Origin: Bacillota bacterium
GTDB lineage: Bacteria > Bacillota > Limnochordia > JAAZLZ01
Direction of reading: 5' to 3'
NCBI GenBank assembly: GCA_012799075.1
Contig: JAAZLZ010000167.1
Coordinates: 1 to 36,239, forward strand
Length of the DNA stretch: 36,239 nt
The first letter of the stretch is position 1; every line of letters begins with the position of its first letter. The notes beneath the pieces were generated by a model. That model did not search any database. It was not told the origin of the DNA and worked only from the letters and a program-made list of their open reading frames with translations. Position numbers and translations under genes: made by a program. Below are positions 1,765 through 22,617 of the stretch, one piece after another.

Positions 1765-1915
1765 AGCTTACTGATGTAAGCAATAGATCATCTTCCGCGA
1801 AGGAAATGGCACCAGGGCAACGAAGAATTCAAACAAGGAACTGCGATTCAAAACTCAAAAAGACTTTGGATAGGATGGAGAAGGGGAAAGATGCAAATTA
1901 AGGGAGGCGAGCGAT

Positions 1916-2923: not shown

Positions 2924-2927
2924 CAAC

Positions 2928-3563
2928 ATGCCAGGCGGTCTTGGTGCCTGCTTAGAAGCAGTCAAGAACGAAGTGAACGAAGCAAAGGACTGGCTGATTG
3001 ACCTGGATGCAGCCATCGGCGATGGCGATCTGGGCCTGACAATGGCGCGGGGTTTTACGGCCATTGCCGATGAATACCAACAGTCCCCCCAGGCGGATGT
3101 GGGCAGGGCCCTGGTCAGGGCGGGCATGACCTTCAACCGGGTGGCTCCATCGACCATGGGAACCTTGATGGCTACCGCCCTCCTTCGCGGGGGCAAGGCC
3201 CTAGCAGGGAAGGAGAACCCGAGTAATGAGGATATTGTCCAAGCTTTGGAGGCCGCAATCGGTGGGATAGGGGAGCGGGGCAAGTCCCAGGTGGGTGATA
3301 AGACCATCCTTGATGTCTTGCAGCCGGCGGTGGAGACCCTGAAGAGAGAACTGGCTGACGGGAAAGACTTGCCCCAGGCATGGAGCACTGCCTTGACAGC
3401 CGCGGAGAAGGGATTTGAACAAACGGCCAACATGGTGTCCAAGGTAGGCCGGGCTAGCTGGTTTGGTGAGAAAAGCGTCGGCAAGCATGATGCGGGAGCT
3501 GGCCTGGGCTTGGTATTATGGAGGGCGATTCAAAAGCACTTTGAAGCTGGAAGGGAGTCTTAG
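2928..3563 (+). CDS. dhaL: Dihydroxyacetone kinase, DhaL (nucleotide-binding) subunit
   Basis: 211 aa with the Dak2 motif LDAAIGDGDLG. Starts 4 nt after the dhaK stop. Confidence 0.9.
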   Translation: MPGGLGACLEAVKNEVNEAKDWLIDLDAAIGDGDLGLTMARGFTAIADEYQQSPQADVGRALVRAGMTFNRVAPSTMGTLMATALLRGGKALAGKENPSNEDIVQALEAAIGGIGERGKSQVGDKTILDVLQPAVETLKRELADGKDLPQAWSTALTAAEKGFEQTANMVSKVGRASWFGEKSVGKHDAGAGLGLVLWRAIQKHFEAGRES

Positions 3564-3565
3564 CC

Positions 3566-4027
3566 ATGTCTGTCTACGATCGTATTGCCCAACTTGGTTT
3601 AGAAGTCCCACCAACGCCCAAACCAGCCGCGGCCTATGTCCCGGCTGTTGTTGCGGGCAACCTGGCCTTTGCTTCGGGCCAAACCAACACCGTTGCCGGC
3701 GTGCTTACAGTGAAAGGAAAGGTAGGGCGGGAAGTGAGCCCTGAAGATGCCTATCAGGCAGCCAGGCTGGCGGCTCTAAACTGCCTGGCCTGCCTAGAGT
3801 CTGCCTTGGGGAGTCTCGATCGAATCAAGCGCATCGTCAAGGTCACCGGGTATGTGGCCTCCGCCGAAGGGTTCGGTGAGCAGCCGCGGGTGGTCAACGG
3901 AGCATCCGATTTGCTCCTGGAAATCTTCGGTGAGAGGGGACAGCATGCAAGGGCCGCCTTGGGCATGGCGGAACTTCCCTTTGGAGCACCGGTGGAAGTT
4001 GAGTTGATTGTTGAGATCGGAGACTAG
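3566..4027 (+). CDS. RidA/YjgF-family reactive-intermediate (imine) deaminase-like protein
   Basis: 153 aa. The size and C-terminal pattern ARAALGMAELPFGAPVEVELIV are typical of the YjgF/RidA fold. Starts 2 nt after the dhaL stop. Confidence 0.8.
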   Translation: MSVYDRIAQLGLEVPPTPKPAAAYVPAVVAGNLAFASGQTNTVAGVLTVKGKVGREVSPEDAYQAARLAALNCLACLESALGSLDRIKRIVKVTGYVASAEGFGEQPRVVNGASDLLLEIFGERGQHARAALGMAELPFGAPVEVELIVEIGD

Positions 4028-4036
4028 CTGGAGAGG

Positions 4037-4057
4037 GGGGCCGATAGGATCGGCCCC
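4037..4057 (+). terminator. GC-rich hairpin (partial terminator or processing site)
   Basis: Perfect 9-bp stem ggggccgat / atcggcccc with a 3-nt loop. Only a weak T-run (tatt) follows. Confidence 0.4.
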
Positions 4058-4128
4058 TATTGCCAAAAGGTATTCGTCTACAGCAAAGTCAGGACAGTAA
4101 TCAAAATCAACTAGAAGGAGGAGAACAC

Positions 4129-5484
4129 GTGTTAGATTATCCCGAGAAGAGTCCAATTTTCTATCGCGACATGACAAGGGGCTATCCGATCATGGATCGG
4201 GGGGAAGGGGTCTACATCTTCGATGAACAGGGGAACCGCTACCTGGATGCCGCGGGCGGCATTGCGGTGGTGAATATCGGCCACGGTGTAGGGGAGATCG
4301 CTGAAGCTGCGGCCAAGCAAGCAAAGCGGCTTGCCTTTGCCTACAGCGGAACCGGTACTTCCCGGCCCCAAATGGACCTGGCGAAAAAGCTGGCCGCCAG
4401 GGCGCCGAAGGGCATGGGAGAGGTCAAAGTCTTCTTCTGCTGCGGCGGCTCGGAAGCTACGGAAACGGCCCTCAAGTTGGCCCGGCAGTACTACCTGGCG
4501 AAAGGACAAGGGGGAAAATATAAGTTTGTTTCCCGCTGGCAAGGATACCATGGCAACACAATTGGGGCCTTGTCCATCACCGGACGGACCCAGTGGCGGG
4601 AGCCTTTCCTGCCATTGCTCCTTGGTTTCCCCCATATATGCGCCCCCATTTGTTATCGCTGTCCCTTGGGAAAGACATATCCCGAGTGTGGCGTTCAGTG
4701 CGCCTGGGAACTCGAACGGGTTCTCGATGTTGAGGGTGCGGAGGCCGTCGCTGGATTTATGGCCGAGCCGATCATTGGCACCTCGGCCACGGCAGTAGCC
4801 CCTCCGCCCGAGTACTACTCCATCATCCGCTCCATTTGTGATGAACATGACATCTTAATGGTCTCCGATGAAGTCATCACTGGCCTTGGCCGGACTGGGA
4901 AAAACTTTGGCATCGATCATTGGGATGTCGCCCCCGACATTATTACCACCGGTAAAGCCCTCAGCGGGGGGTACGCCCCGTTGGCAGCGGTAATTGTCTC
5001 GGAAAAAGTATGGCGGACCTTCTGGGATAAATCCGAGGTCTTTTATCACGGTCATACCTATGTGGGTCATACCCTAAGCTGTGCTATCGGCGATGCTGTT
5101 CAGGGATACATTCAAAAGCATAACCTCATTCAGCGCTCCGCCGAAATGGGGGAGCTGCTCCTTAAGAAACTCCAAGGACTTTTAGATCTGCCCTACGTTG
5201 GCGAAGTCCGGGGCAAGGGGATGCTTCTGGGAGTTGAACTGGTCAAGGACAAGGAAACAAAGGAGCCCTTCCCGCGGGAGACCGGCTTTGCCGACCGGAT
5301 TGCCCACCGGGCCATGGAACTAGGGGTCATCGTCATCCCCGGGGTGCAAGGGACGGCTCCCGGGCTTGCCGGCGATCACTTGCAGATAAGCCCGCCCTTC
5401 ATCTTCGACGAAGAAGATGGAGCCTTGTTGACGGAGGTTCTGCGACGGGCTATTCTTGAAATCGGGGAAGATCTAACAGGGTAG
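4129..5484 (+). CDS. Class-III (omega-type) PLP aminotransferase
   Basis: GGSEATE, SDEVITGLGRTGK and TTGKALSGGY motifs. I place the start at in-frame GTG 4129, 6 nt after GAAGGAGGAG, rather than the ORF-track start at 4060. Confidence 0.85.
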   Translation: MLDYPEKSPIFYRDMTRGYPIMDRGEGVYIFDEQGNRYLDAAGGIAVVNIGHGVGEIAEAAAKQAKRLAFAYSGTGTSRPQMDLAKKLAARAPKGMGEVKVFFCCGGSEATETALKLARQYYLAKGQGGKYKFVSRWQGYHGNTIGALSITGRTQWREPFLPLLLGFPHICAPICYRCPLGKTYPECGVQCAWELERVLDVEGAEAVAGFMAEPIIGTSATAVAPPPEYYSIIRSICDEHDILMVSDEVITGLGRTGKNFGIDHWDVAPDIITTGKALSGGYAPLAAVIVSEKVWRTFWDKSEVFYHGHTYVGHTLSCAIGDAVQGYIQKHNLIQRSAEMGELLLKKLQGLLDLPYVGEVRGKGMLLGVELVKDKETKEPFPRETGFADRIAHRAMELGVIVIPGVQGTAPGLAGDHLQISPPFIFDEEDGALLTEVLRRAILEIGEDLTG

Positions 5485-5526
5485 ATCTTCTCGCCTACCT
5501 AAAACACACACCGAGGAGTTTTGCTG

Positions 5527-6720
5527 ATGCAGATGAGCAAGAAAGTCACTGATAAGGTATCCTGGGTTGGGAAAGTCGACTGGGAGCTCACCAGATTCCA
5601 TGGCGAGGAGTACTCGACTTGGCAGGGCTCATCCTACAACTCCTACTTGGTGAGGGACGAAAAAACAGCCCTCATCGACACCGTTTGGCTGCCCTATGAT
5701 GAAGAATTCGTCACCAACCTTAAGCAGACGGTGGAGCTAGATGCAATCGACTACATCATCATCAACCATGCTGAAATCGACCACAGCGGGGCCCTTCCGC
5801 GACTGATGAAGGAGATTCCAAACACACCTATCTACTGCACCAGAAACGGCATTAAATCACTCCAGGGACATTATCATCAGGACTGGAATTTCGTCCCTGT
5901 CAAGACAGGCGATACCCTCCAGCTAGGCAGCACAAGCCTGGTATTTGTCGAGGCCCCGATGCTCCATTGGCCCGACACCATGTTCACTTACATGACCGGC
6001 GAGAACATTCTGTTCAGCAACGACGCCTTCGGACAGCATTATGCCACCGAGGCATTGTACAACGATCGGGTCGATCAATGCGAGCTGTTTGCCGAAGCCA
6101 TTAAGTACTACGCCAATATCCTGACGCCATTTAGCAGCCAAGTCGCCAAAAAGATCAATGAAGTCTTGGCCCTTGAATTGTCGGTCGACATGATCTGCCC
6201 CAGCCATGGCGTTATCTGGCGAAGCGAGCCTATAAGAATAGTGCAGAAATACTTGGAATGGGCCGATAGCTATCAGGAGAACCAAATCACAATCGTCTAC
6301 GATACCATGTGGAATGCCACCCGGAGGATGGCCGAAGCCATCGCCAAGGGCATTCAAGAGATAGATGGATCGGCAACGGTCAAGTTGATGAATGCAGGCA
6401 AAGAGGACAAGAACGACATCATTACCGAGATTTTCCGTTCCAAGGCGATTCTGGTGGGCTCTTCCACGATCAATCGGCGGTATCTCTCTTCCATTGGAGC
6501 ATTGTTCGAGACGATCAAGGGGATGAGGTTTAGCGGCAAAAAGGCGGCTGCCTTCGGAAGTTACGGGTGGAGCGGTGAAAGCGTCAAGCTGATGGCGGCG
6601 GACCTGGCGGAGGCTGGCTTCGAAGTGGTCAATGAGGGCTGCCGGGTCTTGTGGATGCCGGATGGGGATGCCCTTGATGCTTGCCGTGAGTTCGGACGTC
6701 AATTCGGACAAGCCCTATAG
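5527..6720 (+). CDS. Flavodiiron protein (class A; metallo-beta-lactamase-like plus flavodoxin domains)
   Basis: Diiron motif HAEIDH in INHAEIDHSGALP, plus a C-terminal flavodoxin-like domain (ITIVYDTMWNATRRMAEAI). ATG 5527 sits 8 nt after GAGGAG. Confidence 0.85.
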   Translation: MQMSKKVTDKVSWVGKVDWELTRFHGEEYSTWQGSSYNSYLVRDEKTALIDTVWLPYDEEFVTNLKQTVELDAIDYIIINHAEIDHSGALPRLMKEIPNTPIYCTRNGIKSLQGHYHQDWNFVPVKTGDTLQLGSTSLVFVEAPMLHWPDTMFTYMTGENILFSNDAFGQHYATEALYNDRVDQCELFAEAIKYYANILTPFSSQVAKKINEVLALELSVDMICPSHGVIWRSEPIRIVQKYLEWADSYQENQITIVYDTMWNATRRMAEAIAKGIQEIDGSATVKLMNAGKEDKNDIITEIFRSKAILVGSSTINRRYLSSIGALFETIKGMRFSGKKAAAFGSYGWSGESVKLMAADLAEAGFEVVNEGCRVLWMPDGDALDACREFGRQFGQAL

Positions 6721-6762: not shown

Positions 6763-7497
6763 CTACACATGAAGGATCTGCTCCAGAAATCTCCTCGTCC
6801 TTTCCTGTGTCGGTTCGGTGAAGAAGACATCGGGAGGGGCCTCTTCGACGATGGACCCTTCGTCGATGAATGTTATCCGATGGGCCACCTTCCGGGCGAA
6901 ACCCATTTCATGGGTGACCACCAGCATGGTCATCCCATCGTCGGCCAGCTTCACCATCACGTCAAGGACTTCTTTGATCATTTCCGGATCCAGGGCCGAT
7001 GTGGGCTCATCGAAGAGCATCACTTTTGGCTGCATGGCCAGTGCTCGGGCGATAGCCACCCTCTGCTGCTGACCGCCCGAAAGGGAAGCTGGATAGGAAT
7101 GGGCCTTATCTTCAAGTCCCACCCGAGCCAACAACTCAAGCCCCATCCGATCCGCTTCGTCCTTTGGGATCTTGCGTACTTCCCGGGGGCCTAAGGTGAC
7201 GTTCTCCAACGAAGTCATGTGGGGAAACAAGTTGAAGCTTTGGAAGACCATCCCTACCTCTTTGCGGATCAAATTGATGTCGGTCTTTGGATCGTGCACA
7301 TTCATGGAGTCCACTGTGATGGTTCCTCCCTGGATTCTCTCCAAGCCGTTGATGCATCGGATGAGGGTGCTCTTGCCCGAACCGCTGACCCCGCAGATGA
7401 CAATTACCTCTCCCTTGGCCACTTTGAAGCTGACGTCTTTTAGCACATGGAGTTTCCCGAACCATTTATGTACGTTGGTCACGGTGATCATGTTCAT
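6763..7497 (-). CDS. Polar amino-acid ABC transporter, ATP-binding protein
   Basis: 244 aa with Walker A GVSGSGKST, signature LSGGQQQRV and Walker B VMLFDEPTSALD. Confidence 0.9.
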   Translation of the reverse strand: MNMITVTNVHKWFGKLHVLKDVSFKVAKGEVIVICGVSGSGKSTLIRCINGLERIQGGTITVDSMNVHDPKTDINLIRKEVGMVFQSFNLFPHMTSLENVTLGPREVRKIPKDEADRMGLELLARVGLEDKAHSYPASLSGGQQQRVAIARALAMQPKVMLFDEPTSALDPEMIKEVLDVMVKLADDGMTMLVVTHEMGFARKVAHRITFIDEGSIVEEAPPDVFFTEPTQERTRRFLEQILHV

Positions 7498-7503
7498 CCC
7501 CCT

Positions 7504-8172
7504 TCAGACCGTTTCGATCCACTTGGAAAGCCTTCTTTCCATCCGGTCGGAGAACTTAACCAAAGGATAGCAGACGAGGAAATAAAAGAGGGCTACCATA
7601 CCGAAGGTGATAAAGGTGTGTTCACCCCGTTGGGTGAGCTGCTGACCAACCCGGGTCACCTCAGTTATCCCGATTAAGGATACGACGGAGGTGGCTTTGA
7701 CTAAGAGGACAAACTGTCCAGCCAAAGGCGGCAAGATCAACCGGACCGCCTGGGGGAGGATCACATGCCGCATTTTCTGCATGTAGGTTAAGCCAAGGGC
7801 CTTGGCCGCCTCGTCCTGACCCCGGTCCACGGCATCAATGCCGCCTTTGACAATTTCCGTCATATAGGCTCCCTCGTGTACAATTAGGCCTAACACGCCT
7901 GCGCTTAGGGCGCCAAGTCTAAGGCCGAAGGCCGGCAGGACATAATACATTATGAAGATCACGAGCAAGAAAGGGGTTCCCCGGACAAAGGCCACATAAG
8001 CTCCCAAGAAAGGGGACAGCAAGGGCACCCTGGCGCTGCGGATCATCCCACCGATAAAGCCGACGCCAAGGGACAAAGCCATCCCAGCAATGCTGAGATA
8101 GATTGTAAGATAAATGCCCTGCAGCAGGTGGGGCGTTACTTTTAAGACTACCTCCACTAGTCTCACCTCCAT
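7504..8172 (-). CDS. Amino-acid ABC transporter permease
   Basis: 222 aa, multi-TM, with the EAA-loop-like motif DEAAKALGLTYMQKMRHVILPQA. Confidence 0.85.
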   Translation of the reverse strand: MEVRLVEVVLKVTPHLLQGIYLTIYLSIAGMALSLGVGFIGGMIRSARVPLLSPFLGAYVAFVRGTPFLLVIFIMYYVLPAFGLRLGALSAGVLGLIVHEGAYMTEIVKGGIDAVDRGQDEAAKALGLTYMQKMRHVILPQAVRLILPPLAGQFVLLVKATSVVSLIGITEVTRVGQQLTQRGEHTFITFGMVALFYFLVCYPLVKFSDRMERRLSKWIETV

Positions 8173-8831
8173 TACCTAGGGGTTGTATACCTGTCCACCA
8201 CTTTGGCCAAGGACAACAGGATGAAGTTGATGAGCAGGTAACTGAGGAAAATGGGTGCAAAGGCTTCTACGGGTCGGAATGCCCGGGAATTGACTACGTT
8301 GGCCGCGCGGATCAGTTCATGGACTCCAATCGCAGACAGGAGACTTGTGTCCTTGATGAGGTAGGTGAACTGGCCCAACAGGGGAGGGATCACATTGCGC
8401 AATGCCTGGGGCAGGATGACGAACCGGTTGATTTGCAGACTTCTCATGCCAAGGGCCTGGGCAGCTTCTGTTTGGCCTTTGGGGATGGACCGGATGCCTG
8501 CCCGGACGATTTCGGTTATGTAGGCCCCGCTGTTTAGGACCAAAGCGAGGATGCCTGCTTGAACGGTAGGGATGGTCATGCCCAGGTGGGGCAGACCGAA
8601 AAAAATAATGTAGATCTGCACCAGCAGGGGTGTTGAGCGGATGAAGGCCACGTAGGCGCTGACGGGCCTGGACAAGAGAGGAAGTCGGGAGAGCTTGGCT
8701 AAACCCCCTAAGATCCCAACGATGAGGGCAAGGGCAATGCTGACAAAGGAAATCCAGAAGGTGCTCCTAAATCCCAACAGGAAGACAGGTGTGTATTTGC
8801 GGAGAACACTCCATAAAAACACATCAAACAT
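8172..8831 (-). CDS. Amino-acid ABC transporter permease
   Basis: 219 aa with EAA-loop motif TEAAQALGMRSLQINRFVILPQA. Overlaps the next permease by 1 nt. Confidence 0.85.
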   Translation of the reverse strand: MFDVFLWSVLRKYTPVFLLGFRSTFWISFVSIALALIVGILGGLAKLSRLPLLSRPVSAYVAFIRSTPLLVQIYIIFFGLPHLGMTIPTVQAGILALVLNSGAYITEIVRAGIRSIPKGQTEAAQALGMRSLQINRFVILPQALRNVIPPLLGQFTYLIKDTSLLSAIGVHELIRAANVVNSRAFRPVEAFAPIFLSYLLINFILLSLAKVVDRYTTPR

Positions 8832-8855
8832 CCACCGGCACCCCCGTTGTTTTGG

Positions 8856-8879
8856 GACCCCCGGAGGATTCCGGGGGTC
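8856..8879 (-). other. Intra-operon hairpin after the binding-protein gene
   Basis: Perfect 9-bp stem gacccccgg / ccgggggtc. No U-tract on the transcribed strand. Confidence 0.4.
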
Positions 8880-8888
8880 GCCGAACCC

Positions 8889-9689
8889 TTAGAGAAGCTT
8901 TTGGGAAATGGGGTTCCATGGTCCGATCCACTTTTCATAGATGGCTTCGAACTCACCGGAACGCTTGATTTGCTCAAAGAACAGGTTCAACCATCGCAGC
9001 AACTCAGGATTCTCATGGCGGACTGTGAAGGCGTAGGTGTCGACATACAGGTAGCCTTCCAACACATGCATCTTGTCGGGAGCCTTGGCCGACTCGCTCA
9101 CTGCCAGGACATCATCCTCCAAGGCGGCGTCGACCCGACCGGCCATCAAAGCCTCGGTCATCTCCGCCGTAGTGTTGAAGACGGCCTTTTGAGCGAGGGG
9201 AAGCTTCTCCTCGGCAAGGACCTCCCCGATTGCTCCCAAGGCTGCGCCTACGGTTATCTTGGGGTTGTTTAGGTCCTGCCAAGAGGTAAAGGGGGTGTCA
9301 GTTCTACTGTAGGCTATGGTGCCGGTGCGAAAATAAGGGTCGGTGAAGGCTACGCTTTTAGCCCGCTCTAAGGTATTTGACATTCGATCGCCGATCATGT
9401 CCACTCGGCCTGCCAACAGGGCGGGCAACAGACCTGCCCAGTCCAAATCCACGAACTCAACTTCAACCCCCATCTTTTCGCCCATGAGCCTGTTGAGGTC
9501 GATGCAAAAACCCGTTGGATCGCCTTTATCATCCCGGAAGGTGAAGGGGCGGACGCCCGTGTTGATGGCAATAATGATCTTTCCCCGTTCGCTAATCTCG
9601 TGGAGAATGCTCCGCTGTCCTTGGACAGGAGGGACCAAAAGCAAGATTAGCAAGAACACTACTACTCCCCGGAATACCTTGGTGCCCAT
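8889..9689 (-). CDS. Amino-acid ABC transporter substrate-binding protein (family 3)
   Basis: 266 aa with an N-terminal signal peptide and a PBPb-type sequence (GFCIDL, VDMIGDRMS). ATG follows AAAGGTGGG. Confidence 0.85.
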   Translation of the reverse strand: MGTKVFRGVVVFLLILLLVPPVQGQRSILHEISERGKIIIAINTGVRPFTFRDDKGDPTGFCIDLNRLMGEKMGVEVEFVDLDWAGLLPALLAGRVDMIGDRMSNTLERAKSVAFTDPYFRTGTIAYSRTDTPFTSWQDLNNPKITVGAALGAIGEVLAEEKLPLAQKAVFNTTAEMTEALMAGRVDAALEDDVLAVSESAKAPDKMHVLEGYLYVDTYAFTVRHENPELLRWLNLFFEQIKRSGEFEAIYEKWIGPWNPISQKLL

Positions 9690-9703
9690 AGCATGCCCAC
9701 CTT

Positions 9704-10891
9704 TCAGATTTGCTTAGGCGACGTGCCCAGGTAACGCTGGATTCGCCGCAGGCCTTCCCGTAGATCCTCCTCCTTTGACGCCAGGGATATCCTGATGAAT
9801 CCTTCTCCCTGTGGGCCGAAGGTATCACCGGGCGCCACCGCAACTGATTCTGACATGAGCAGGTCCTTGGCGAAATCCCGGGAGGGTTGAGCAGACTCGG
9901 TGATGTCGATCATCATGTAGAACGTGCCCTCGGGCTTGATGACCCTTAGTCCAAGCTTCTCAGCCTCGACTAGACACATGTCCCGGCGTCTTCGGTAGGT
10001 CTCCCTCATTTCAGCCACAATTTCTTGGGGTCCCTCCAAAGCTGTTTCAGCAGCTTTTTGGGCGATCGCGCAGGGAGATGCGGTGAAGGCTTCTTGAAGT
10101 CGGGCTAAGGTTTCCGACAATCCTTGCGGGCAGATGGCATAGCCCACCCGCCAACCGGTCATGGCATAAGTCTTAGAGAAGCTGTTGACGATGACCACCC
10201 GATGGGGCTCATCGGCAGCCACCTGGAGAAAGGACCGGTAGGGTGTGGCGGTGAAGACTAGCTCATCGTAGACTTCATCGGCGAGGATAAAAAGACCGTG
10301 TTTCTGGGCAAAGAGCAACAGGTTTTTCAGAATGTCTTCGCTAAACACAGCTCCTGTCGGATTTGCAGGGCTGTTCACCACCAATACCCGGGTGGAGTCG
10401 TCGATTTGGGCTTCCATTTGGGCGATGTCAGGGATAAAGGCCTCCGGCTGCAAGGGGTATCTTTGCACACCAAGCCCCAGCAAAGCGCAAAGCATCTCAT
10501 AGTTGGGCCAGCATGGATTGGGGAGGAGGATGCTGTCCCCCAGATCTGTCAGGGCGATAAAAGTAGTAGCGATAGCCGTAATTCCCCCCGCGGTGGCAAT
10601 GACCTGCTCCGGCTCAACATGGACCCCGTACAACCGCTGGTAACGCTTTGCGATTGCCGTCCTCAAGCTGAAAAGACCGGCGTTGGCGGTGTACTTGGTA
10701 TACCCATCCTGAGCGGCCTTCACCGCTCCTTGCACGATGTGTTCGGGGGTGGGAAAGGTTGGCTCCCCAACCTCCAGTCGAATGGGGTCAGGACATTGCA
10801 GGGCCAGATCAAGGATTTCCCTTACCCCTGACCAGGGCATGCCCCCGGCCCGCTGGGAAGGCCCTAATCCCGGAATCAGGTGTCTATGCAT
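9704..10891 (-). CDS. Class I/II PLP aminotransferase (AspC-like)
   Basis: 395 aa with PLP-Lys motif NSFSKTYAMTGWRVGY and N-terminal MPWSGVREILDLA. ATG sits 8 nt after GGGAGG. Confidence 0.85.
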   Translation of the reverse strand: MHRHLIPGLGPSQRAGGMPWSGVREILDLALQCPDPIRLEVGEPTFPTPEHIVQGAVKAAQDGYTKYTANAGLFSLRTAIAKRYQRLYGVHVEPEQVIATAGGITAIATTFIALTDLGDSILLPNPCWPNYEMLCALLGLGVQRYPLQPEAFIPDIAQMEAQIDDSTRVLVVNSPANPTGAVFSEDILKNLLLFAQKHGLFILADEVYDELVFTATPYRSFLQVAADEPHRVVIVNSFSKTYAMTGWRVGYAICPQGLSETLARLQEAFTASPCAIAQKAAETALEGPQEIVAEMRETYRRRRDMCLVEAEKLGLRVIKPEGTFYMMIDITESAQPSRDFAKDLLMSESVAVAPGDTFGPQGEGFIRISLASKEEDLREGLRRIQRYLGTSPKQI

Positions 10892-11101
10892 GGCTCAAAC
10901 CTCCCACAGTCTTGGCAGCTCAAGGAGCTGGCAGAACTGACTAAGATATTATGCGTATAAGACTTAAAATCCTCCCAAGATAATGAATTCTCGAAACGAG
11001 ATCCGGTTCCATGTTGGCTTTCCAACTACTTTGTTGGAGACATGAAAACCGCCCTTTTTAACACTAGGGAGGGAAAACGCTACATATTGGAGGTTGCTCA
11101 G

Positions 11102-12046
11102 CTAACCTCCTATTTGCACCCGCAATCCCTCTTTCTCGGCCCTTATCTTGAGGGCTTCCATTTCTTCCTTGGGTATCTCATTCCGCACCGGTTGAAAACG
11201 CTCCCTGTCCAACAGACGATATTTCCCTTCCCCGAATCGGTGGAAAGGTAGCAGATGCAGTTCATCAATGCCAAGATGGCGGCCTTGGCGGGCGATCGTG
11301 GCAATATCAGCTTCATTGTCATTGAAGCCCGGGATGACAGGGGTGCGCAAGATGATGTTCCTTGTTCGCTGACGGAGCCTTTCCAAGTTGGACAGGATCA
11401 ACCGGTTGTCTTGTCCGATCCATTGGCGATGGGTCTTGGGATCCATGTGCTTAAGGTCATACAGGAAAAGATCTGTATAGGGGAGTACCTGCTCGAAGTT
11501 TTCCCAGGGCACATGGCCAGCCGTTTCAACGGCGGTGTGCACTCCCTTGGCCTTGGCGGCTTGGAGAATGGCCGCGGCAAAGTCCGCCTGAGCCAAAGGC
11601 TCACCTCCCCCCAGGGTCATGCCGCCCCCTGAGTTGGCATAAAAGGCAGCGTCTTTTAAAACCTCTTCCAGGACTTGGTCGACGGTCATGGAAGTTCCCT
11701 TAACGATCCTTGCTTCCGCATAACAAACTTGGCAGCAGGCCCCACATTCCTGGCACAGGTCCCGGTGGAAGGCCAGCTGCCCTTCATCTAAACTGACGGC
11801 CTGATGGGGACAGATCTCCAAGCAGGCCTGACAGCCGATGCACTTTTCGGGCTGAAACAACAACTCCGGCCGAAACCTTTGGGATTCTGGATTAGAGCAC
11901 CATTTGCAGTGGAGGGGACATCCCTTGAGAAATACCAGTGTTCGTATACCGGGCCCATCATGAATGGAAAACCTTTGCATATCAAAAACGATACCTTCCT
12001 GTGTCACAATGGCTGCTCCCTTCGCGGACAGATTGGCTTCGATCAT
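11102..12046 (-). CDS. Glycyl-radical-enzyme activating protein (radical SAM)
   Basis: 314 aa. Has CPLHCKWC (CxxxCxxC), two ferredoxin-type Cys clusters (CIGCQACLEICP; CQECGACCQVC), GGGEPL and the FSIHDGPGIRT N-terminus typical of GRE activases. Confidence 0.85.
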   Translation of the reverse strand: MIEANLSAKGAAIVTQEGIVFDMQRFSIHDGPGIRTLVFLKGCPLHCKWCSNPESQRFRPELLFQPEKCIGCQACLEICPHQAVSLDEGQLAFHRDLCQECGACCQVCYAEARIVKGTSMTVDQVLEEVLKDAAFYANSGGGMTLGGGEPLAQADFAAAILQAAKAKGVHTAVETAGHVPWENFEQVLPYTDLFLYDLKHMDPKTHRQWIGQDNRLILSNLERLRQRTRNIILRTPVIPGFNDNEADIATIARQGRHLGIDELHLLPFHRFGEGKYRLLDRERFQPVRNEIPKEEMEALKIRAEKEGLRVQIGG

Positions 12047-12100
12047 TGCTCAGACCCTCCAGAAGAATTCCCCGTCTATTGCCGGACACCTTCCATAGCG

Positions 12101-13318
12101 CTAGTTGAGCTGCCGAAGATTATTTGCCAGCTCCTTGGCCAAGCCCTGGACCACAAGGTCTCCATCCCCAGGGCGCAGACTAATGGGATTGACGATGAAG
12201 ACGCCCTGATGGAGGAGCTGTTCATTAAAGGCAATGCGGGGATTGGCGTAGCGAAGACTGGTGGAGATTTCCCAAGGGGAGCGTTTCAAGGAAGCTTCAT
12301 CCAGTTTAATCTGCAACAGGGGAGTAGGGGCATCAAGCACCAGTCTGACCTGGTCAACTCCGGCCAGGCCTTCGACTTTGCCGGCGATTCGTCGCAAATG
12401 ATCCACCCATTGGTCGTGTAGTCCTTCCGCATCGACAAAGCGGCGCAGGGCCACCATTAAACCGACGATTTCTTCTTTCGATACCTTAAATCCCCGACCT
12501 ACTCCATGATAGGGCATGCCCCGGAGGGCTTCCTTGGGGAAAAGCAGCCGGGGTGGATTCCAAGCTTCCCAAGGCACATCCAAGTCCACCATTTGTACAG
12601 CTGCGGAAGCCACCAACTCCTGTTTTCCGCACAGGATGCCTGTACCCTGGGGTCCGCAAATTGCCTTGCCTCCGCTGAAAACCACCAGATCGGCCCCTTC
12701 TTCAATGAAGCGGCGTAGATTCTCCCGGGGCGGCAGCTGGGCTGCCGCATCCACGATGACGGGAATGCCGAACCGCCGGGCAACGGCAACTAAGGCCCTA
12801 AGGTTCATTCGGTCGTCTCGACGCGCCAGGTAAAAAATGGCCGCAGTCTTGTCGGTGATTGATTCAGCGAAGACATCCGGTTCAATTCCCCGCACGCCTG
12901 CTCCTGCAGCCCAGTCATCAATCCCTACGTCGATGAGTTTGGCCCCGGCAAGGGTCAAAGCCCGATCATAGGCATTACGGGGGGAACGGGCGATGAGGAT
13001 TTCATTGGGGATGCCCCGGGAGTCGGGGAGCTGTCGCATTCTGGCCCCATCGAGGCCAGCCATACAGGCGGCGGCAGCCAAGGTCAATCCCGCGGACGCC
13101 CCGGAGGTCACCAAACCGCTTTCCGCGCCTGTAACTTCCCTGATGAGCAGGGCCGCCTGAGTCTGGAGATCTTCGATGTAAACGCTTGCTTCCCCAGCCT
13201 TAGCCATTGCCTCCATCACCACGTTGGAAAGGGGCGGCCCGCCGAGGCGGGTTGCGGTACCGGCGGCATTAATGACGATGGGGACCCCTAAATCTTCATA
13301 AATGTTTGCCACTCTCAT
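12101..13318 (-). CDS. SelA-like / DgaE-family PLP-dependent enzyme (lyase or transferase; substrate unknown)
   Basis: FSGGKAICGPQGTG matches the SelA/DgaE PLP-Lys signature. The N-terminus reads VINAAGTATRLGG. I place the start at ATG 13318 (MRVANIYEDLG), just after AAGGAAGGG; GTG two codons downstream is also possible. Confidence 0.7.
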   Translation of the reverse strand: MRVANIYEDLGVPIVINAAGTATRLGGPPLSNVVMEAMAKAGEASVYIEDLQTQAALLIREVTGAESGLVTSGASAGLTLAAAACMAGLDGARMRQLPDSRGIPNEILIARSPRNAYDRALTLAGAKLIDVGIDDWAAGAGVRGIEPDVFAESITDKTAAIFYLARRDDRMNLRALVAVARRFGIPVIVDAAAQLPPRENLRRFIEEGADLVVFSGGKAICGPQGTGILCGKQELVASAAVQMVDLDVPWEAWNPPRLLFPKEALRGMPYHGVGRGFKVSKEEIVGLMVALRRFVDAEGLHDQWVDHLRRIAGKVEGLAGVDQVRLVLDAPTPLLQIKLDEASLKRSPWEISTSLRYANPRIAFNEQLLHQGVFIVNPISLRPGDGDLVVQGLAKELANNLRQLN

Positions 13319-13534
13319 CCCTTCCTTGATTAGATAGTCATAATACCTATTCTCGCACCCGGGCATTGTTTCCTTGCGATATTAAACAATGCTGAAAAGG
13401 GAAAAAGGAAAGTTGGGGCTGCTGGGACCGAAAAATGTCATTTCGTAACGATAAATCGGCAGGAACCCCTGTTAGCGAAGCGAAATAAATAGAGCAAATG
13501 ATAAACGCACGTCTTTCAGAAAGGACTAATTGAA

Positions 13535-13587
13535 GCCAGTCTAGTGCTGGGTGAATATATTTCATATTCACCCGACTAGACGCTGGC
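13535..13587. repeat. 53-nt imperfect palindrome in a divergent control region
   Basis: Paired segments are gccag/ctggc, tctagt/actaga and gggtgaatat/atattcaccc, giving 21 bp around a 5-nt loop. Confidence 0.7.
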
Positions 13588-13592
13588 AACTG

Positions 13593-13608
13593 CCCAAGGG
13601 CCCTTGGG
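13593..13608. repeat. Perfect 16-nt palindrome CCCAAGGGCCCTTGGG
   Basis: Exact self-complementarity, read directly from the sequence. Confidence 0.7.
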
Positions 13609-13753
13609 GGAGTCCCTAACGATGTGCGGTCGGCACAGGTGATCTAAACCACGATGAGTCGGCAATTACCGGTGGAAGGGGGAATGTCAAAACAAGCAAA
13701 GGTTCCGTTCTAGTTGTGATAACAATTAATACCATGATACGGGAGGGATTCAG

Positions 13754-14767
13754 ATGAAGCATATGGGACGGTCCTTGATGTTCGCACTAGTTTTTGTCCT
13801 CGCTATCACTAGTCTCCATGGGGTGGTGCTTGGTGCCAAAAAATATGTTGTCAAATTTGCCCACGGGTCGGAAATCACCGAACCAACCCACGAGGCAGCA
13901 TTACTCATGGCCGAGCGGGTGGCCGAGCGGACAAATGGCCAGGTTGAAATTCAGGTGTTTCCCAGCAACCAATTAGGTTCGGAACGGGACATCTTTGAAG
14001 CCTGTAAACTGAATGCTATCCAGATGATTTTTGAATCCCCGGGGTCGATCGGTGTATTCCAGCCAGAAGTGGAGATCTTCAATGGACCATTCCTTTGGAA
14101 GGACTGGGAGGAAACCAAGCGGGTCATGCGGGGGCCCTTTGGCCAAGAACTGTATGCGAAGGTTCTACAAAATCATGGCCTGAGGGTGCTCGACCCCAAC
14201 TGGTACTGGGGCTGGCGGCATTTGACTACCAGGAATACCCCTGTTAGGGTGCCTGAGGATGTCAAAGGCCTAAAAGTGCGCTCCCCAAACATTCCGATTT
14301 TTATGGAAACCCTCAAGGCCATGGGTGCAAGCCCTACCCCCGTCGACTTTGGTGAAGTCTATACCGCACTGCAACAGGGACTAGTCGATGGTCAGGAAAA
14401 CCCGATCCCTACAATTTGGGCCAAGCGATTCTTTGAGGTGCAGAAATACGTTGTCTTGACGGGTCACATGCTGCAGTCAAACCACATCTTGATCAACGAT
14501 CGCTTCTTCCAGAGCATGCCCAAGGAGTTCCAGGCGATCCTCCAGGAAGAAGTCCTCGCCGCGGGCGAATACATGAGCACCCTTCAGCAGCAAGAAGAAG
14601 AAGAGCTCATCGCCAAGATCGAAGCTCAAGGTGTTACCATCATCCGGGATGTGGACCGGGAAACCTTCCGGAAGATTACCGAGGGTGTTTATGAGAAGTT
14701 CGAGGACAATTGGGGCAGGGGCCTGTACCAGAAACTTCGGCAGGCTATCTTGGACGCTCAAGAGTAA
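13754..14767 (+). CDS. dctP: TRAP transporter substrate-binding protein (DctP family)
   Basis: 337 aa with a signal peptide and the DctP-type motif ALQQGLVDGQENP. ATG follows GGGAGGG. Confidence 0.9.
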   Translation: MKHMGRSLMFALVFVLAITSLHGVVLGAKKYVVKFAHGSEITEPTHEAALLMAERVAERTNGQVEIQVFPSNQLGSERDIFEACKLNAIQMIFESPGSIGVFQPEVEIFNGPFLWKDWEETKRVMRGPFGQELYAKVLQNHGLRVLDPNWYWGWRHLTTRNTPVRVPEDVKGLKVRSPNIPIFMETLKAMGASPTPVDFGEVYTALQQGLVDGQENPIPTIWAKRFFEVQKYVVLTGHMLQSNHILINDRFFQSMPKEFQAILQEEVLAAGEYMSTLQQQEEEELIAKIEAQGVTIIRDVDRETFRKITEGVYEKFEDNWGRGLYQKLRQAILDAQE

Positions 14768-14784
14768 AGACTAGGTCGATAGGT

Positions 14785-14816
14785 AAGAGGGGAGGGGCAA
14801 CTACCTCTCCTCTTTT
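14785..14816 (+). terminator. Intra-operon attenuator/terminator hairpin after dctP
   Basis: Stem aagaggggagg / cctctcctctt with 1 mismatch, then tt. Confidence 0.45.
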
Positions 14817-14845
14817 CAACTTCCCCTGTGAAGGGAGTTTGGCCA

Positions 14846-15310
14846 ATGGGTGTACTTGCTTTTCTGGAGAGACTGATTGCCAAGGTCGAAGACTTATTGG
14901 TGGTGGGTGCCCTGGTTGTCTTGTCAGCCAGTGTGTTCTTGGGAGTAGTCTTTCGCTATGTGCTGAATGCTCCCCTTACCTGGACCGATGAAGTTGCGCT
15001 CCTTGGCTTTGTGTGGCTTGTATTCATAGGCGCTGGCACTTGTACCAGGACCAGGTCTCATATGGGTATTGAAATGCTTGTCCGGCGGCTGTCGGAGCAA
15101 AGGGCGCTGCGTCTTCAGACCATTGGGAACGTGATCGTCATGGTCATCCTGGGGGTGCTCGTCTACTTTGGCATTCAACACGCGTTGTATGCAGCCCACA
15201 GTCGGACCACTGTCCTGGGGATTCCCTGGACTTATATTTTCTTGTCCGTGCCCGTAGGTTCTGGGTTCATGTTCATCCACCTGCTTTATCAACTATGGGG
15301 TAAGGACTGA
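14846..15310 (+). CDS. dctQ: TRAP transporter small permease (DctQ family)
   Basis: 4-TM protein with PLTWTDEVA and HMGIEML motifs. ATG 14846 sits 8 nt after AAGGGAG, so the ORF-track GTG at 14828 is probably too early. Confidence 0.85.
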   Translation: MGVLAFLERLIAKVEDLLVVGALVVLSASVFLGVVFRYVLNAPLTWTDEVALLGFVWLVFIGAGTCTRTRSHMGIEMLVRRLSEQRALRLQTIGNVIVMVILGVLVYFGIQHALYAAHSRTTVLGIPWTYIFLSVPVGSGFMFIHLLYQLWGKD

Positions 15311-15352
15311 TTTCCCAGGCAAGCCTGGGCATTAGACCAGGAGGAGACATCC

Positions 15353-16633
15353 ATGAAGATCGTAATGATCATCTTTGTCCTATTTGCTTTTGCCTTAGCT
15401 AATATTCCCATTGCCTTCGCCATCATCGCCTCGACCCTCATCACCCTGTGGGTGTCCGACGTATCCATCAGCATGCAGATTCAGCGCATGGTGGCGGGGG
15501 TTAATTCTTTTCCTCTCCTTGCGGTTCCACTCTATATCCTTGCTGGGGTGCTGATGGAATGCTCCGGGATTACGCCGCGCCTTTTTCGGCTCGCCGATGC
15601 ACTGGCCGGCCATATCCGCGGGGGGCTGGGCCATGTAAATGTGGTGGCGAGCATGATCATGGCGGGCATGTCCGGGTCGGCTATGGCCGACTGCGCGGTG
15701 ACAAGCAAGATTTTTGTGCCCGAAATGGTCAGAGCGGGTTATCCTAGGCCCTTCGCTGCCGCCGTAACGGCAGCTTCCTCCATTATCGGGCCAATAATCC
15801 CGCCAAGCATCATTTTCGTTGTTTACGGGTATTTATCCGGAGTATCCGTGGGTCGGCTGTTCATTGCTGGTGCGATCCCGGGCATTCTGGTTGGATTATA
15901 CCAAATGGTCGCGGTTTACTTTATTGCCAAACAACAAGGCTTTGGGCAGCCGAGTCATCGATTTTCATGGTCCAGTCTTTGGACCGTAATTAAGCAAACC
16001 TGGGCAGCCCTCTTCCTGCCGCCCATCATCCTCGGAGGAATTCTCTCTGGTGCTTTCACTCCAACGGAGGCTGGGGGCATCGCGGTGGTCTACTCGCTGC
16101 TTGTCGGTGTTTTCCTCTACCGGCAGCTCGGGCTGAAAGATGTCATCAGGGCCCTAAAGGACACTGCCGCCAGCACTGCTGCCTTGATGTTTATCGTGGC
16201 TGCGGCGGCTCCCTTCGGATGGATCTTGGGTCTTGAACAGGTCCCCCAGCTAATCGCAAGGGTATTTACCTCCATATCCACGAATCCTGCCGTGATCCTG
16301 TTCTTGATCAACATCCTGTATCTGTTCTTAGGAACCTTTATGGACATTACACCTATCCAAATCATTACCATACCAATGCTGATGCCGATCATCAATCAAC
16401 TGGGGATTGATCCGATCCATTTCGGGGTTGTCTCGTCTATTGCTCTAATGATTGGCGCCATCACCCCGCCGGTGGGTACATTGATGTATTGCACCTGTGA
16501 GATTTCCAATGTATCCATTGAGGATTTCCTTAGGAGCGTTTGGCCCTTCTACTTGGCCCTTGTTGCCCTGTTGTTTACCGTAACGTACGTACCGGCGTTG
16601 ACCCTCTGGCTGCCTAGTGTGGTCTTCGGGTAA
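15353..16633 (+). CDS. dctM: TRAP transporter large permease (DctM family)
   Basis: 426 aa, multi-TM, with GGLGHVNVVASMIMAGMSGSAMAD and GPIIPPSI motifs. Confidence 0.9.
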   Translation: MKIVMIIFVLFAFALANIPIAFAIIASTLITLWVSDVSISMQIQRMVAGVNSFPLLAVPLYILAGVLMECSGITPRLFRLADALAGHIRGGLGHVNVVASMIMAGMSGSAMADCAVTSKIFVPEMVRAGYPRPFAAAVTAASSIIGPIIPPSIIFVVYGYLSGVSVGRLFIAGAIPGILVGLYQMVAVYFIAKQQGFGQPSHRFSWSSLWTVIKQTWAALFLPPIILGGILSGAFTPTEAGGIAVVYSLLVGVFLYRQLGLKDVIRALKDTAASTAALMFIVAAAAPFGWILGLEQVPQLIARVFTSISTNPAVILFLINILYLFLGTFMDITPIQIITIPMLMPIINQLGIDPIHFGVVSSIALMIGAITPPVGTLMYCTCEISNVSIEDFLRSVWPFYLALVALLFTVTYVPALTLWLPSVVFG

Positions 16634-16778: not shown

Positions 16779-17531
16779 ATGGAAAAAATCGGTTTTATTG
16801 CGCGAACCAGAGGGGAACTGGATGCCTTCAAGGAAGGAGTCATCATCATTCCTACCGGTACCACGGAACAGCACGGGCCCCATCTGCCCGTAGGAGTCGA
16901 CAGCTTCCTTGCGGAAACCATCGCCCTTCACGCGGCAAAGGAGCTAAGCACCCGGTTGCCGGTTTTGGCCGCGCCAACCTTGACTTATGGCAACTCCCAC
17001 CACCACTTATCTTTCGGGGGGACTATCTCCCTGCGAAGCGAAACCCTCATTGCCGTATTGAAGGACATTGGGATGTCCCTGGCGGAAAGCGGCTTCAGGA
17101 AGTTGTTCTTTTTGAACTCCCACGGGGGAAACGATGAGGCGGCCCGGCTGGTTGTAAGGGATTTGGCTAGAGAAGGGATCTGCGCAGCTGCAACCTCCTA
17201 TTGGACCGTTGCCTGGGATGCCCTTAAGGAGGCCGGCGCCTTGGACTCCGGGCGGGTGCCGGGGCATGCAGGCGGCTTTGAGACATCCTTGATGCTGTAC
17301 CTATATGGGGAGCTGGTCCAATGGGCTAATCGGCCGCCCTTAAGGGAAGATGCCAGCCCAAAAGAAGAGCCTGCTCGCCGGTTGTTCGTTCAGCTGCCCG
17401 GAGAAGGAGTGGGGAAGGATGGCTATAGCGACGATGCCCGCCATGCCTCGGCCGCGAAGGGGGAGCAGTACTTTCAGATTATCGTTTCCCAAGTGGCCCA
17501 GGCGGTGGAGGAGTTTTATCGCAGGATCTAA
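16779..17531 (+). CDS. Creatininase-family amidohydrolase
   Basis: 250 aa. GTTEQHGPHLPVGVD and LNSHGGN motifs are typical of the creatininase family. Confidence 0.8.
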   Translation: MEKIGFIARTRGELDAFKEGVIIIPTGTTEQHGPHLPVGVDSFLAETIALHAAKELSTRLPVLAAPTLTYGNSHHHLSFGGTISLRSETLIAVLKDIGMSLAESGFRKLFFLNSHGGNDEAARLVVRDLAREGICAAATSYWTVAWDALKEAGALDSGRVPGHAGGFETSLMLYLYGELVQWANRPPLREDASPKEEPARRLFVQLPGEGVGKDGYSDDARHASAAKGEQYFQIIVSQVAQAVEEFYRRI

Positions 17532-21814: not shown

Positions 21815-21841
21815 CTCGCCTGGGATGGGAGAGTGGCGCTG

Positions 21842-22519: not shown

Positions 22520-22617
22520 GATTTCCAATCCCACTTGAGAAAGGAGGTTCTCGGGAAGAAGCTGGGAACTTGGTTCTATTGGCATGTGTCAATCACGAAA
22601 AGAAAGGGTGTCAGCTA

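Follow-up and report, generated by a model that had tools for sequence, protein, structure and literature searches.

Why does the gene for an activase of oxygen-sensitive glycyl radical enzymes (GREs) stand directly behind the gene for a PLP enzyme, in a stretch of DNA that encodes no GRE? The stretch analyzed here, 36,239 nt from a Bacillota bacterium that are termed the window in the following, was originally predicted to represent one of two situations, either an activase that serves a distant GRE or a radical-SAM/PLP partnership that had escaped recognition. The first of these is favored. It is fairly probable that the gene encodes a working GRE activating enzyme (GRE-AE), the target of which is a GRE with its gene at another place in the genome, and the orphan arrangement most likely results from local gene reshuffling rather than from new chemistry. 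The evidence for this explanation includes the orthodox character of the activase, purifying selection, the location of outgroup activase genes behind GRE genes, and a GRE gene that lies 29 nt away from the activase gene in a sister lineage, lineage C.

Features of the Activase

The activase gene (11102..12046, minus strand) encodes a protein of 314 aa, which is best read as an orthodox, working GRE-AE of the PFL2/HypD-AE type, that is, as a radical SAM enzyme with two auxiliary ferredoxin-like clusters. This predicted function is derived from HMM matches and sequence motifs. In the HMM search, TIGR02494 (PFLE_PFLC) matched residues 20-305 of the 314 with 377 bits, at a cut-off of 174.35, and the Pfam matches are to the Radical_SAM and Fer4 families. 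All equivalog models stayed below their cut-offs (HpsH 356.7 versus 430, HypD-AE 351.5 versus 425, IAD-AE 296.5 versus 425, and CutD 293.6 versus 360).

The elements that had been named in the original prediction of a canonical GRE activase, i.e., CPLHCKWC, two Cys clusters, and GGGEPL, were all borne out by the translation, TIGR02494, and Pfam. CPLHCKWC (11897..11920, minus strand) is the CX3CX2C radical-SAM cluster motif with C43, C47, and C50, and its columns are conserved in 118 homologs. The two ferredoxin-type CX2CX2CX3C clusters (11723..11842, minus strand) have the sequences CIGCQACLEIC (C69/72/75/79) and CQECGACCQVC (C98/101/104/108); Fer4-family matches extend over residues 64-112, and eight of eight cysteines are conserved among the homologs. 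GGGEPL (residues 146-151; 11594..11611, minus strand), which has a SAM-binding role across the radical SAM superfamily, is conserved in the 118 homologs at G147, G148, E149, P150, and L151. The N-terminal DGxGxR motif is also present, as HDGPGIRT at residues 29-36. Its core DGPGIR (residues 30-35; 11942..11959, minus strand) is invariant in the family and aligns with DGPGIR of Escherichia coli PFL-AE (3c8f), and in PFL-AE structures this motif binds the glycine loop of the GRE. Altogether, of the 98 columns with a conservation of 90% or more among the 118 homologs, the activase retains 95.

Absence of a GRE From the Window

The original prediction that no GRE and no GrcA-like ORF is present in the 36 kb was confirmed by ORF sizes, tblastn, and a motif scan. 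The longest ORF in the window has at most 516 aa, and tblastn of the window, queried with a complete GRE of 788 aa as well as a C-terminal GRE fragment that includes the glycyl-radical domain, gave chance matches only. A six-frame scan for [RK][VIL][SACG]G[YFW] recovered RVGGF in a URO-D-like protein, one match in an ORF of 46 codons, and nothing else, and nothing in this motif scan of the window was credible as a small glycyl module of the GrcA type. The 210-nt gap after the activase gene (10892..11101), in which nothing GRE-like had been predicted, gave the same result with GRE queries in tblastn, and a permissive tblastn search for a GRE pseudogene or remnant in this gap, the whole window, and the loci L001 and L013 had a best E value of 0.34.

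The Gene Pair in Three Sister Lineages

The gene for the PLP enzyme (12101..13318, minus strand) precedes the activase gene with a spacer of 54 nt (12047..12100, minus strand), which contains no terminator-like site. Both this distance and the predicted SD sites were verified, since GGAGGG is located 8 nt before the ATG of the activase gene and the SD-like AAGGAAGGG precedes the PLP gene. The ORF of 405 aa begins at the ATG behind AAGGAAGGG; an alternative in-frame ATG at 13366 would extend the protein to 421 aa.

The order PLP gene, then activase gene is found in three lineages of anaerobic-digester Bacillota, which are 85-96% identical, namely, lineage A (the window and L001-L003), lineage B (L013, L022, L023, L047, and L048), and lineage C (L004 and L012). 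The spacer is 35-40 nt long in the sister lineages. No other adjacency is retained throughout the three lineages, and the downstream side has been reshuffled: the DNA homology between the lineages ends at the stop codon of the activase gene, and three different contexts follow. In the window, the 210-nt gap is a rearrangement breakpoint, at which the homology to lineages B and C stops and which is free of GRE remnants. It is followed by a lineage-specific cassette (6763..10891, minus strand) that encodes a class-I aminotransferase (9704-10891), a family-3 solute-binding protein, two permeases, and an ABC ATPase. An aminotransferase and an ABC importer had been predicted to follow the pair on the same strand, which is true for the window. 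However, this cassette is present only in the window and L001-L003 and is absent in L013, L022, L023, L047, L048, L004, and L012, and it is lineage-specific and outside the conserved unit. An operon from 13318 to 6763 is ruled out as a conserved unit, because the aminotransferase gene and the ABC genes occur in neither sister lineage. In lineage B, the activase gene is directly abutted by reversed, convergent genes for a flavodiiron protein and an aminotransferase with 88-90% identity; in the window, the class-III aminotransferase and flavodiiron protein genes (Pfam matches) are located at 4060..6720 on the plus strand.

In lineage C, the distance between the end of a convergent GRE gene and the stop codon of the activase gene is 29 nt, and the encoded GRE carries the loop VVRVAGFSVYF. 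The PLP protein and the activase of L004 and L012 are 85% and 90% identical to those of the window, respectively. L004 and L012 may share raw data, in which case only one assembly would support the GRE junction. Local reshuffling is favored because this close relative has a GRE gene directly beside the activase gene.

On the upstream side, a TRAP transporter (DctP/DctQ/DctM; 13754..16633, plus strand; Pfam and NCBIfam matches) is the divergent neighbor of the pair and is conserved in lineages A and C, with 88% identity between L004 and the window for DctP and 80% for DctQ. Alignment of the intergenic region that separates the divergently oriented PLP gene and dctP (13319..13753) revealed segments with conservation across the three lineages, among them a leader immediately 5' of the PLP start. 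Located 3' of the TRAP genes is a gene for a creatininase-family amidohydrolase (16779..17531, plus strand; PF02633, E 4.5e-62), which has the same position in L001 and does not reach the cut-offs of the equivalog models for creatininase and MftE. An Rfam scan of the window yielded no regulatory RNA, and promoter and terminator scans had yields at or below the shuffle expectation.

The activase gene is under purifying selection, and there is no sign of decay. Over all lineage pairs, its dN/dS lies at 0.07-0.12, also where neither partner has an adjacent GRE gene, and equals that of neighboring housekeeping-like genes. These values bear on the explanation that the cognate GRE was lost from the lineage and that the activase is a leftover devoid of current function. 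It would be in line with the lack of GRE genes over 11 kb downstream of the activase gene and over 24 kb in the other direction, and lineage B likewise has no GRE gene within 10 kb downstream. Nevertheless, this explanation is very unlikely, since dN/dS stays near 0.1 within lineage A and even for the two lineages that lack the GRE gene when compared with each other, each of about 13 loci carries an intact ORF, and all catalytic motifs are kept. A decaying relic is rejected on the basis of dN/dS and motif retention.

More Distant Relatives

A GRE gene adjoining the activase gene is absent at the window locus, and present in L004 and L012 and at 14 of 14 activase loci examined outside the clade. 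The closest outgroup activases (P0122, P0123, and P0124) are 63-65% identical to the activase of the window, and their genes overlap the 3' end of genes for GREs of 787-788 aa. Conversely, no activase gene was found near PLP homologs of 35-54% identity in about 22 loci. A survey of SelA-like/activase neighborhoods had been proposed originally, with the possibility in mind that the adjacency is unique to one genome; this is not the case, as the pair occurs in three lineages, but it is absent in every more distant relative of either protein. The pairing is not general, but confined to one narrow clade with at least 85% identity.

The GRE of lineage C does not share the history of the activase. 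True cognate pairs co-vary, with activase/GRE identities of 82/88, 80/84, and 53/65%. The lineage C GRE, in contrast, is only 42-44% identical to the GREs of the closest outgroup activases, while those activases have the above-mentioned 63-65%. In addition, the activases of its nearest GRE relatives are 41-42% identical to the window activase. Because of this mismatch with the activase ancestry, the lineage C GRE has either been adopted as a partner recently or stands beside the activase by chance. The GREs beside the closest outgroup activases carry RVAGYSA in the loop, and the L004 GRE carries RVAGFSV. A protein search with the L004 GRE fragment had a best match of 57% identity, among matches that were biased to short or partial proteins and included neither the fragment itself nor an ortholog from lineage A or B.

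The gene content of lineage C raises the question whether PLP enzyme, activase, TRAP transporter, and GRE might constitute one catabolic pathway for an amino-hydroxy acid imported by the TRAP transporter. The PLP enzyme would then make or consume the substrate of the GRE, and the lineage C GRE would be the true partner, which has been relocated in the source genome of the window. This possibility, which we hold only tentatively, refines the explanation of an activase serving a GRE encoded elsewhere and does not oppose it. It is in agreement with the gene order in L004, where DctQ and DctP on one strand, the divergent PLP and activase genes, and the convergent GRE gene are all contained in 5.3 kb, with TRAP transporters that accompany GRE and activase in L008, L009, L017, L043, and L044, and with the conserved segments between the PLP gene and dctP. 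However, the histories of GRE and activase are discordant, the GRE is missing from the locus in two of the three lineages, and the DctPs at the other GRE loci share only 28-32% identity with the window DctP.

The PLP Enzyme

According to HMM and PDB matches (8t7j, E 7e-42; DgaE 7lc0, E 2e-36), the protein encoded upstream of the activase belongs to the fold-type-I PLP enzymes, more precisely to the SelA/DgaE superfamily, and has divergent active-site residues. Lys218 in FSGGKAICGPQGTG (codon 12665..12667, minus strand) is the PLP Schiff-base lysine and is aligned with the corresponding lysine in DgaE and 8t7j. The original prediction of a SelA/DgaE-like enzyme with this lysine thus holds at the superfamily level, but the protein is far below the cut-offs for both namesakes. 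The DgaE models gave 180 bits (NF047797, cut-off 600) and 168.5 bits (TIGR01437, cut-off 385.3), and key DgaE residues are unmatched, which ruled out DgaE. SelA was ruled out with a score of 33.9 for TIGR00474 (cut-off 267.9), the match of which begins at model position 76 in the protein of 405 aa. We flag the enzyme as a candidate for a distinct, uncharacterized subfamily with the SelA/DgaE fold in anaerobic-digester Bacillota. Clade-specific changes (H119R, R122T, W148D/E, E149V/I, and R232K) affect positions that are invariant in 115 relatives, and the gene is under purifying selection with a dN/dS of 0.12-0.14 between lineages. The search for an extra domain, an insertion, or an RVxG-type loop in comparison with the relatives had a negative result, apart from two single-residue insertions.

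The adjacency to the PLP gene and the clade-specific changes of its product would also fit a direct functional link. In such a partnership, the activase-like protein would give a 5'-deoxyadenosyl or protein radical to the PLP enzyme or to a PLP-bound substrate. Two proteins would thereby carry out a chemistry analogous to that of lysine 2,3-aminomutase on an imported amino acid. The TRAP or ABC transporter would bring in the compound, and a PLP enzyme neofunctionalized via the five changes would catalyze a radical amino-group migration or an elimination, all in the absence of a GRE. Several observations are compatible with it: the PLP gene holds the usual GRE slot upstream of the activase gene with a spacer of 35-54 nt free of terminator-like sites, the pair alone has been kept as a unit across the three lineages, purifying selection acts on both genes, and the PLP protein departs from its relatives at invariant positions. 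Still, such a partnership seems unlikely. A new target would be expected to alter the conserved residues of the activase, including DGPGIR, which are retained, and the PLP protein has gained neither a domain nor a glycyl loop. The adjacency is limited to a narrow clade and could be inherited synteny, because the upstream TRAP genes are syntenic as well, and a sister lineage has a GRE gene beside the activase gene. Furthermore, the terms "PLP" and "pyridoxal" are absent from a GRE review (PMC13450708), and no report of such a pairing was found in the literature on activases with PLP and on DgaE/SelA. The PLP enzyme is probably neither the substrate nor a catalytic partner of the activase.

Proposed Mechanism and Implications

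Returning to the favored explanation, an activase that acts on a GRE encoded elsewhere, family membership suggests that the [4Fe-4S] cluster at the CX3CX2C motif would bind and reductively cleave SAM, with electrons passing via the two auxiliary ferredoxin-like clusters. The 5'-deoxyadenosyl radical formed in this way would take a hydrogen from the glycine of the RVxG[FY] loop in a GRE of the PFL2 family. The target GRE would be encoded outside the 36 kb and hence be activated in trans. During evolution, this activase lineage may have left the canonical order of GRE gene, then activase gene, and its gene may have become the second gene behind that of a divergent PLP enzyme, in a two-gene unit positioned beside a divergent TRAP transporter. 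The DNA just 3' of the activase gene would represent a rearrangement hot spot, which carries a convergent GRE gene in lineage C and an inserted cassette in the lineage of the window. The PLP enzyme itself is most likely a lyase or deaminase that would act on an imported amino-acid-like compound and belong to the same catabolic regulon as the GRE.

If this explanation is true, the locus documents a GRE activase that has been uncoupled from its GRE by local rearrangement, and the automatic inference that an activase implies an adjacent GRE fails here. The specificity of GRE-AEs in trans would merit further study, and in a recent review the partner specificity of these enzymes has been termed poorly defined (PMC13450708). 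If, on the other hand, the direct partnership with the PLP enzyme were true, it would be a new mode of joining radical SAM and PLP chemistry and a substantial enzymological finding.

Comparison With Known Systems

In lysine 2,3-aminomutase, one polypeptide combines a radical-SAM cluster with PLP, and the two act jointly on an amino acid. That enzyme is a single protein from a different radical-SAM family, whereas the window encodes two proteins, and the radical-SAM one of them is an orthodox GRE activase.

DgaE (7lc0) and 8t7j belong to the same fold-type-I SelA-like family as the PLP protein, and the region of the PLP lysine aligns. However, functionally important residues of DgaE are not matched. 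The strictly conserved His-162/His-163 loop of DgaE is the C-3 proton donor, and Arg-301, Arg-332, and Arg-346 form the phosphate site (PMC9529869). The segment with this loop (HHCV in 7lc0) falls into an alignment gap in the PLP protein of the window, and the three arginines correspond to a gap, Asn, and Ile, respectively, in a phmmer alignment with a weakly aligning C-terminal segment (22 bits). Arg-226 of DgaE corresponds to Lys232. The genomic context is also different: the dga operon includes a mannose-type PTS and the DgaF aldolase, while no PTS or KDPG-aldolase genes are found near the PLP gene of the window, the neighbors of which encode TRAP and ABC transporters and aminotransferases.

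The closest similarity is to the PFL2/HypD-type activating enzymes covered by TIGR02494 (HypD-AE, HpsH, CutD, and the glycerol dehydratase AE), with which the activase shares the length class, CX3CX2C, the two-cluster insert, DGPGIR, and GGGEPL. Its HMM score is twice the family cut-off, yet it does not reach any equivalog cut-off, and its gene stands behind a gene for a PLP enzyme and not behind a GRE gene. PflA of E. coli, in contrast, has no ferredoxin insert, and the PDB alignment with it is limited to residues 24-54 and 117-310 in the activase of the window. In addition, pflA has retained pflB beside it, while no GRE gene is near the window activase gene. The E. coli gene tdcE is located at a locus separate from pflA. 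PFL-AE activates TdcE, and the exchange of Tyr to Phe in the Gly loop is tolerated, which is a precedent for an activase that also acts on a GRE outside its usual pairing when the Gly loops are similar (PMC13450708).

A typical GRE activase without a GRE in its vicinity

The activase gene (11102-12046, minus strand) encodes a protein of 314 aa, and its translation contains everything that the original prediction had read from it, i.e., the radical-SAM cluster motif C43-P-L-H-C47-K-W-C50 (CPLHCKWC, 11897-11920, minus strand), two ferredoxin-type clusters (CIGCQACLEIC and CQECGACCQVC), and a subsequent GGGEPL. Pfam matches comprise Radical_SAM and several Fer4 families, and the model TIGR02494, "glycyl-radical enzyme activating protein", scores 377 bits (cut-off 174.35). 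The protein stays under the cut-off of every equivalog model for characterised activases (HpsH, HypD-AE, IAD-AE, CutD, HPAD-AE, and BssD). Of 98 alignment columns with a conservation of 90% or more in 118 homologues, it retains 95; the departures are I23M/V, Y268F, and G280D, and no change affects DGPGIR, the three cluster motifs, or GGEP. Pairwise dN/dS values of 0.07-0.12, both within lineage A, to which the window belongs, and between two lineages without an adjacent GRE, match those of DctP, a flavodiiron protein, and a class-III aminotransferase. The idea that the activase is a left-over, decaying relic was rejected on the basis of these columns, motifs, and dN/dS values; it is contradicted by the purifying selection and very improbable. 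Nothing in the sequence suggests a change of target.

The window contains no ORF of GRE size (the longest has at most 516 aa), tblastn with a 788-aa GRE and a C-terminal GRE fragment that includes the glycyl-radical domain yielded a best E value of 0.34, and a search of all six frames for the motif of the glycyl loop revealed nothing credible. The earlier claim that the 36 kb encode neither a GRE nor a small glycyl-radical module was thus confirmed, as was the expectation that activases normally adjoin their GRE: outside the clade with the PLP-then-activase order this is the case in 14 of 14 loci, none of which contains a SelA-like gene. The gene context of these loci shows that the window activase has probably descended from a canonical GRE-adjacent activase. 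For the closest activases outside the clade, at 63-65% identity, the gene overlaps that of a 787-788-aa GRE at the latter's 3' end, in clusters with the order MaoC, GRE, activase, TRAP, CoA-transferase, enoyl-CoA hydratase, and shikimate dehydrogenase. Three loci (L008, L009, and L053) harbor this conserved and apparently uncharacterised cluster (with a MaoC-like dehydratase, a 787-aa GRE, and a shikimate-dehydrogenase-like protein), which points to a GRE whose substrate would be a cyclic or hydroxy-acid compound of a CoA pathway.

The PLP enzyme differs from DgaE

The PLP gene (12101-13318, minus strand) lies 54 nt upstream of the activase gene and encodes 405 aa when counted from an ATG with a good SD site; an alternative in-frame ATG at 13366 would result in 421 aa. 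The codon of Lys218 is at 12665-12667 (minus strand), in agreement with the original prediction. The designation "SelA/DgaE-like" held in part. The protein is a fold-type-I PLP protein with weak Pfam matches to SelA and Aminotran_5, and the second closest solved structure is DgaE (7LC0, E 2e-36), after the uncharacterised "putative selenocysteine synthase" 8T7J (E 7e-42). However, the scores are far under the cut-offs of the DgaE models (NF047797, 180 versus 600; TIGR01437, 168.5 versus 385.3) and the SelA model (33.9 versus 267.9). In DgaE, Arg-301, Arg-332, and Arg-346 bind the phosphate and Arg-226 is the proposed binder of the alpha-carboxylate (PMC9529869). The PLP enzyme has a gap, Asn, and Ile at the former positions, Lys232 at the latter, and an alignment gap instead of the His-162/His-163 loop. 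Therefore, a function as D-glucosaminate-6-phosphate lyase was rejected.

Compared with 115 homologues (about 45-54% identity), the clade has retained the PLP lysine and the VDAAAQ aspartate, and no added domain or loop was found. Five changes (H119R, R122T, W148D/E, E149V/I, and R232K) are clade-specific, affect positions with 92-100% conservation among the homologues, and suggest a shift of substrate specificity. Between lineages the dN/dS of the PLP enzyme is 0.12-0.14. Within lineage A, the comparison of the window (12101-13318) with locus L001 (4639-5856) gave 0.52 (dN 0.019, dS 0.036) for the PLP gene, which may be noise due to few substitutions, and 0.12 for the activase gene.

Relatives outside the clade are at most 54% identical, and none of about 22 such loci contains an activase gene; the neighbors include amino-acid or peptide ABC transporters, RidA, amidohydrolases, and others. 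A RidA-like gene also accompanies the SelA-like gene at the unrelated locus L046, and a cluster in the window (426-5484) encodes a RidA-like protein together with a Glu/Leu/Phe/Val-type dehydrogenase, DhaK and DhaL, and a class-III aminotransferase. The company of RidA-like genes is in keeping with a lyase chemistry that yields enamines or imines in this PLP family.

The PLP-then-activase pair is conserved in three lineages

The PLP-then-activase order was found in three uncultured Bacillota lineages from anaerobic digesters: lineage A (the window and L001-L003; 96% identity for both proteins), lineage B (L013, L022, L023, and L047-L052, from MAG AS20ysBPTH_116 and at least six JGI samples; PLP enzyme 85%, activase 88%), and lineage C (L004 and L012, MAG AS15tlH2ME_148; 85% and 90%). 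The proposed co-occurrence thus exists in these lineages, but it is absent from the outside loci of both families, which are unlinked beyond the clade. Downstream, nucleotide homology among the three lineages ends at the activase stop codon. It is followed in lineage A by a class-I aminotransferase gene and a four-gene ABC importer, and then by convergent flavodiiron and class-III aminotransferase genes; in lineage B directly by the convergent flavodiiron gene at a distance of about 150 nt; and in lineage C by a convergent GRE gene, which ends 29 nt past the stop codon and of which the C-terminal 349 aa are present on the contig. Upstream, the divergent TRAP genes DctP/DctQ/DctM (13754-16633, plus strand) are common to lineages A and C (DctP 88% identical), and the lineage B contigs stop on this side of the pair. 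The conserved unit thus consists of the PLP-then-activase pair and, for A and C at any rate, the TRAP genes as well. The larger unit with the aminotransferase and the importer reproduces the gene order of lineage A, but this cassette is confined to that lineage. A Mutator-family transposase gene at the window end (34897-36216; PF00872, E 1.6e-48) is consistent with a rearrangement-prone region.

A leader directly upstream of the PLP start is also conserved in the three lineages (window 13319-13385; L004 1960-2033; L013 270-344), without a match in Rfam. In lineages B and C it contains an upstream ORF of 10-14 codons with its own SD site (VPRYENIYNEYTTF and VPHYENMSYE, each followed by a stop codon), which terminates at or before the SD site of the PLP gene. 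The window differs here by 4 nt, and its corresponding codons (MPGCENRYYDY..., ATG 13366) thereby share the PLP reading frame. This region may function in attenuation or as a leader-peptide element. Elsewhere in the window, a 516-aa MTHFR-like protein with a DUF5981 C-terminal domain (28137-29687) is encoded between two URO-D-like proteins (25449-26450 and 29671-30834). This set resembles a system for methyl transfer or demethylation, and a second TRAP transporter, accompanied by a GntR regulator (21833-25432), adjoins it.

The GRE of lineage C and the origin of the arrangement

The lineage C GRE (glycyl loop VVRVAGFSVYF) belongs by score to the PFL2-3 family and, over the half available, is most similar to HypD. 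Activases and GREs that are true neighbors co-vary (82/88, 80/84, and 53/65% activase/GRE identity, based on the same 349 C-terminal GRE residues). In contrast, between L004 and the MaoC-type loci the activases are 63-65% identical and the GREs just 42-44%. The L004 GRE has its nearest relatives in L043 and L044 (49-50% identity), and the activases there share just 41-42% identity with the window activase. Judged from these identities, the GRE is not of the type expected from the ancestry of the activase. Therefore, either the activase lineage has adopted a new partner, or the adjacency is a by-product of rearrangement; L004 and L012 perhaps stem from the same reads, so that the junction may rest on one assembly. 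The glycyl loops are close, RVAGFSV in the L004 GRE versus RVAGYSA in the GREs of the closest outgroup activases. According to a recent review, activases cross-activate GREs with similar loops, PFL-AE tolerates a Tyr-to-Phe change in the loop, and it activates both TdcE and PFL (PMC13450708).

A protein search with the partial L004 GRE, whose match list was skewed toward short or partial proteins, yielded a top match of 57% identity. It also revealed many PFL-like GREs of about 560-608 aa (P0259-P0360), some on contigs of 185-520 kb, which lack the N-terminal 200 or so residues and align to about 200-788 of the 788-aa GRE. L043 (8644-9957) and L044 (3935-5689) were grouped with them, although the 584-aa GRE of L044 lacks an internal segment (about 182-392) instead. 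Such proteins might represent split genes, GREs of reduced length, or errors of gene calling.

Taken together, we favor, with some reservation, the interpretation that a working activase would act in trans on a GRE whose gene lies at another site in the genome and would share its transcript with a PLP enzyme from the same catabolic neighborhood, the GRE having been separated by a rearrangement with its breakpoint directly after the activase gene. As a special case, which is possible but tentative, the TRAP transporter, PLP enzyme, GRE, and activase could form one pathway. A direct partnership, in which the radical-SAM protein works with the PLP enzyme, would account for the pair being the sole unit kept across rearrangements and for the altered PLP active site. 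Yet the activase sequence is orthodox, the PLP protein is devoid of any acceptor feature, the distribution is narrow, and a GRE adjoins the activase gene in a sister lineage, so that we regard it as quite unlikely. Most probably, the GRE activase is an ordinary one whose gene arrangement is non-canonical, and it and the PLP enzyme are new members of known families, with a small chance of something new.
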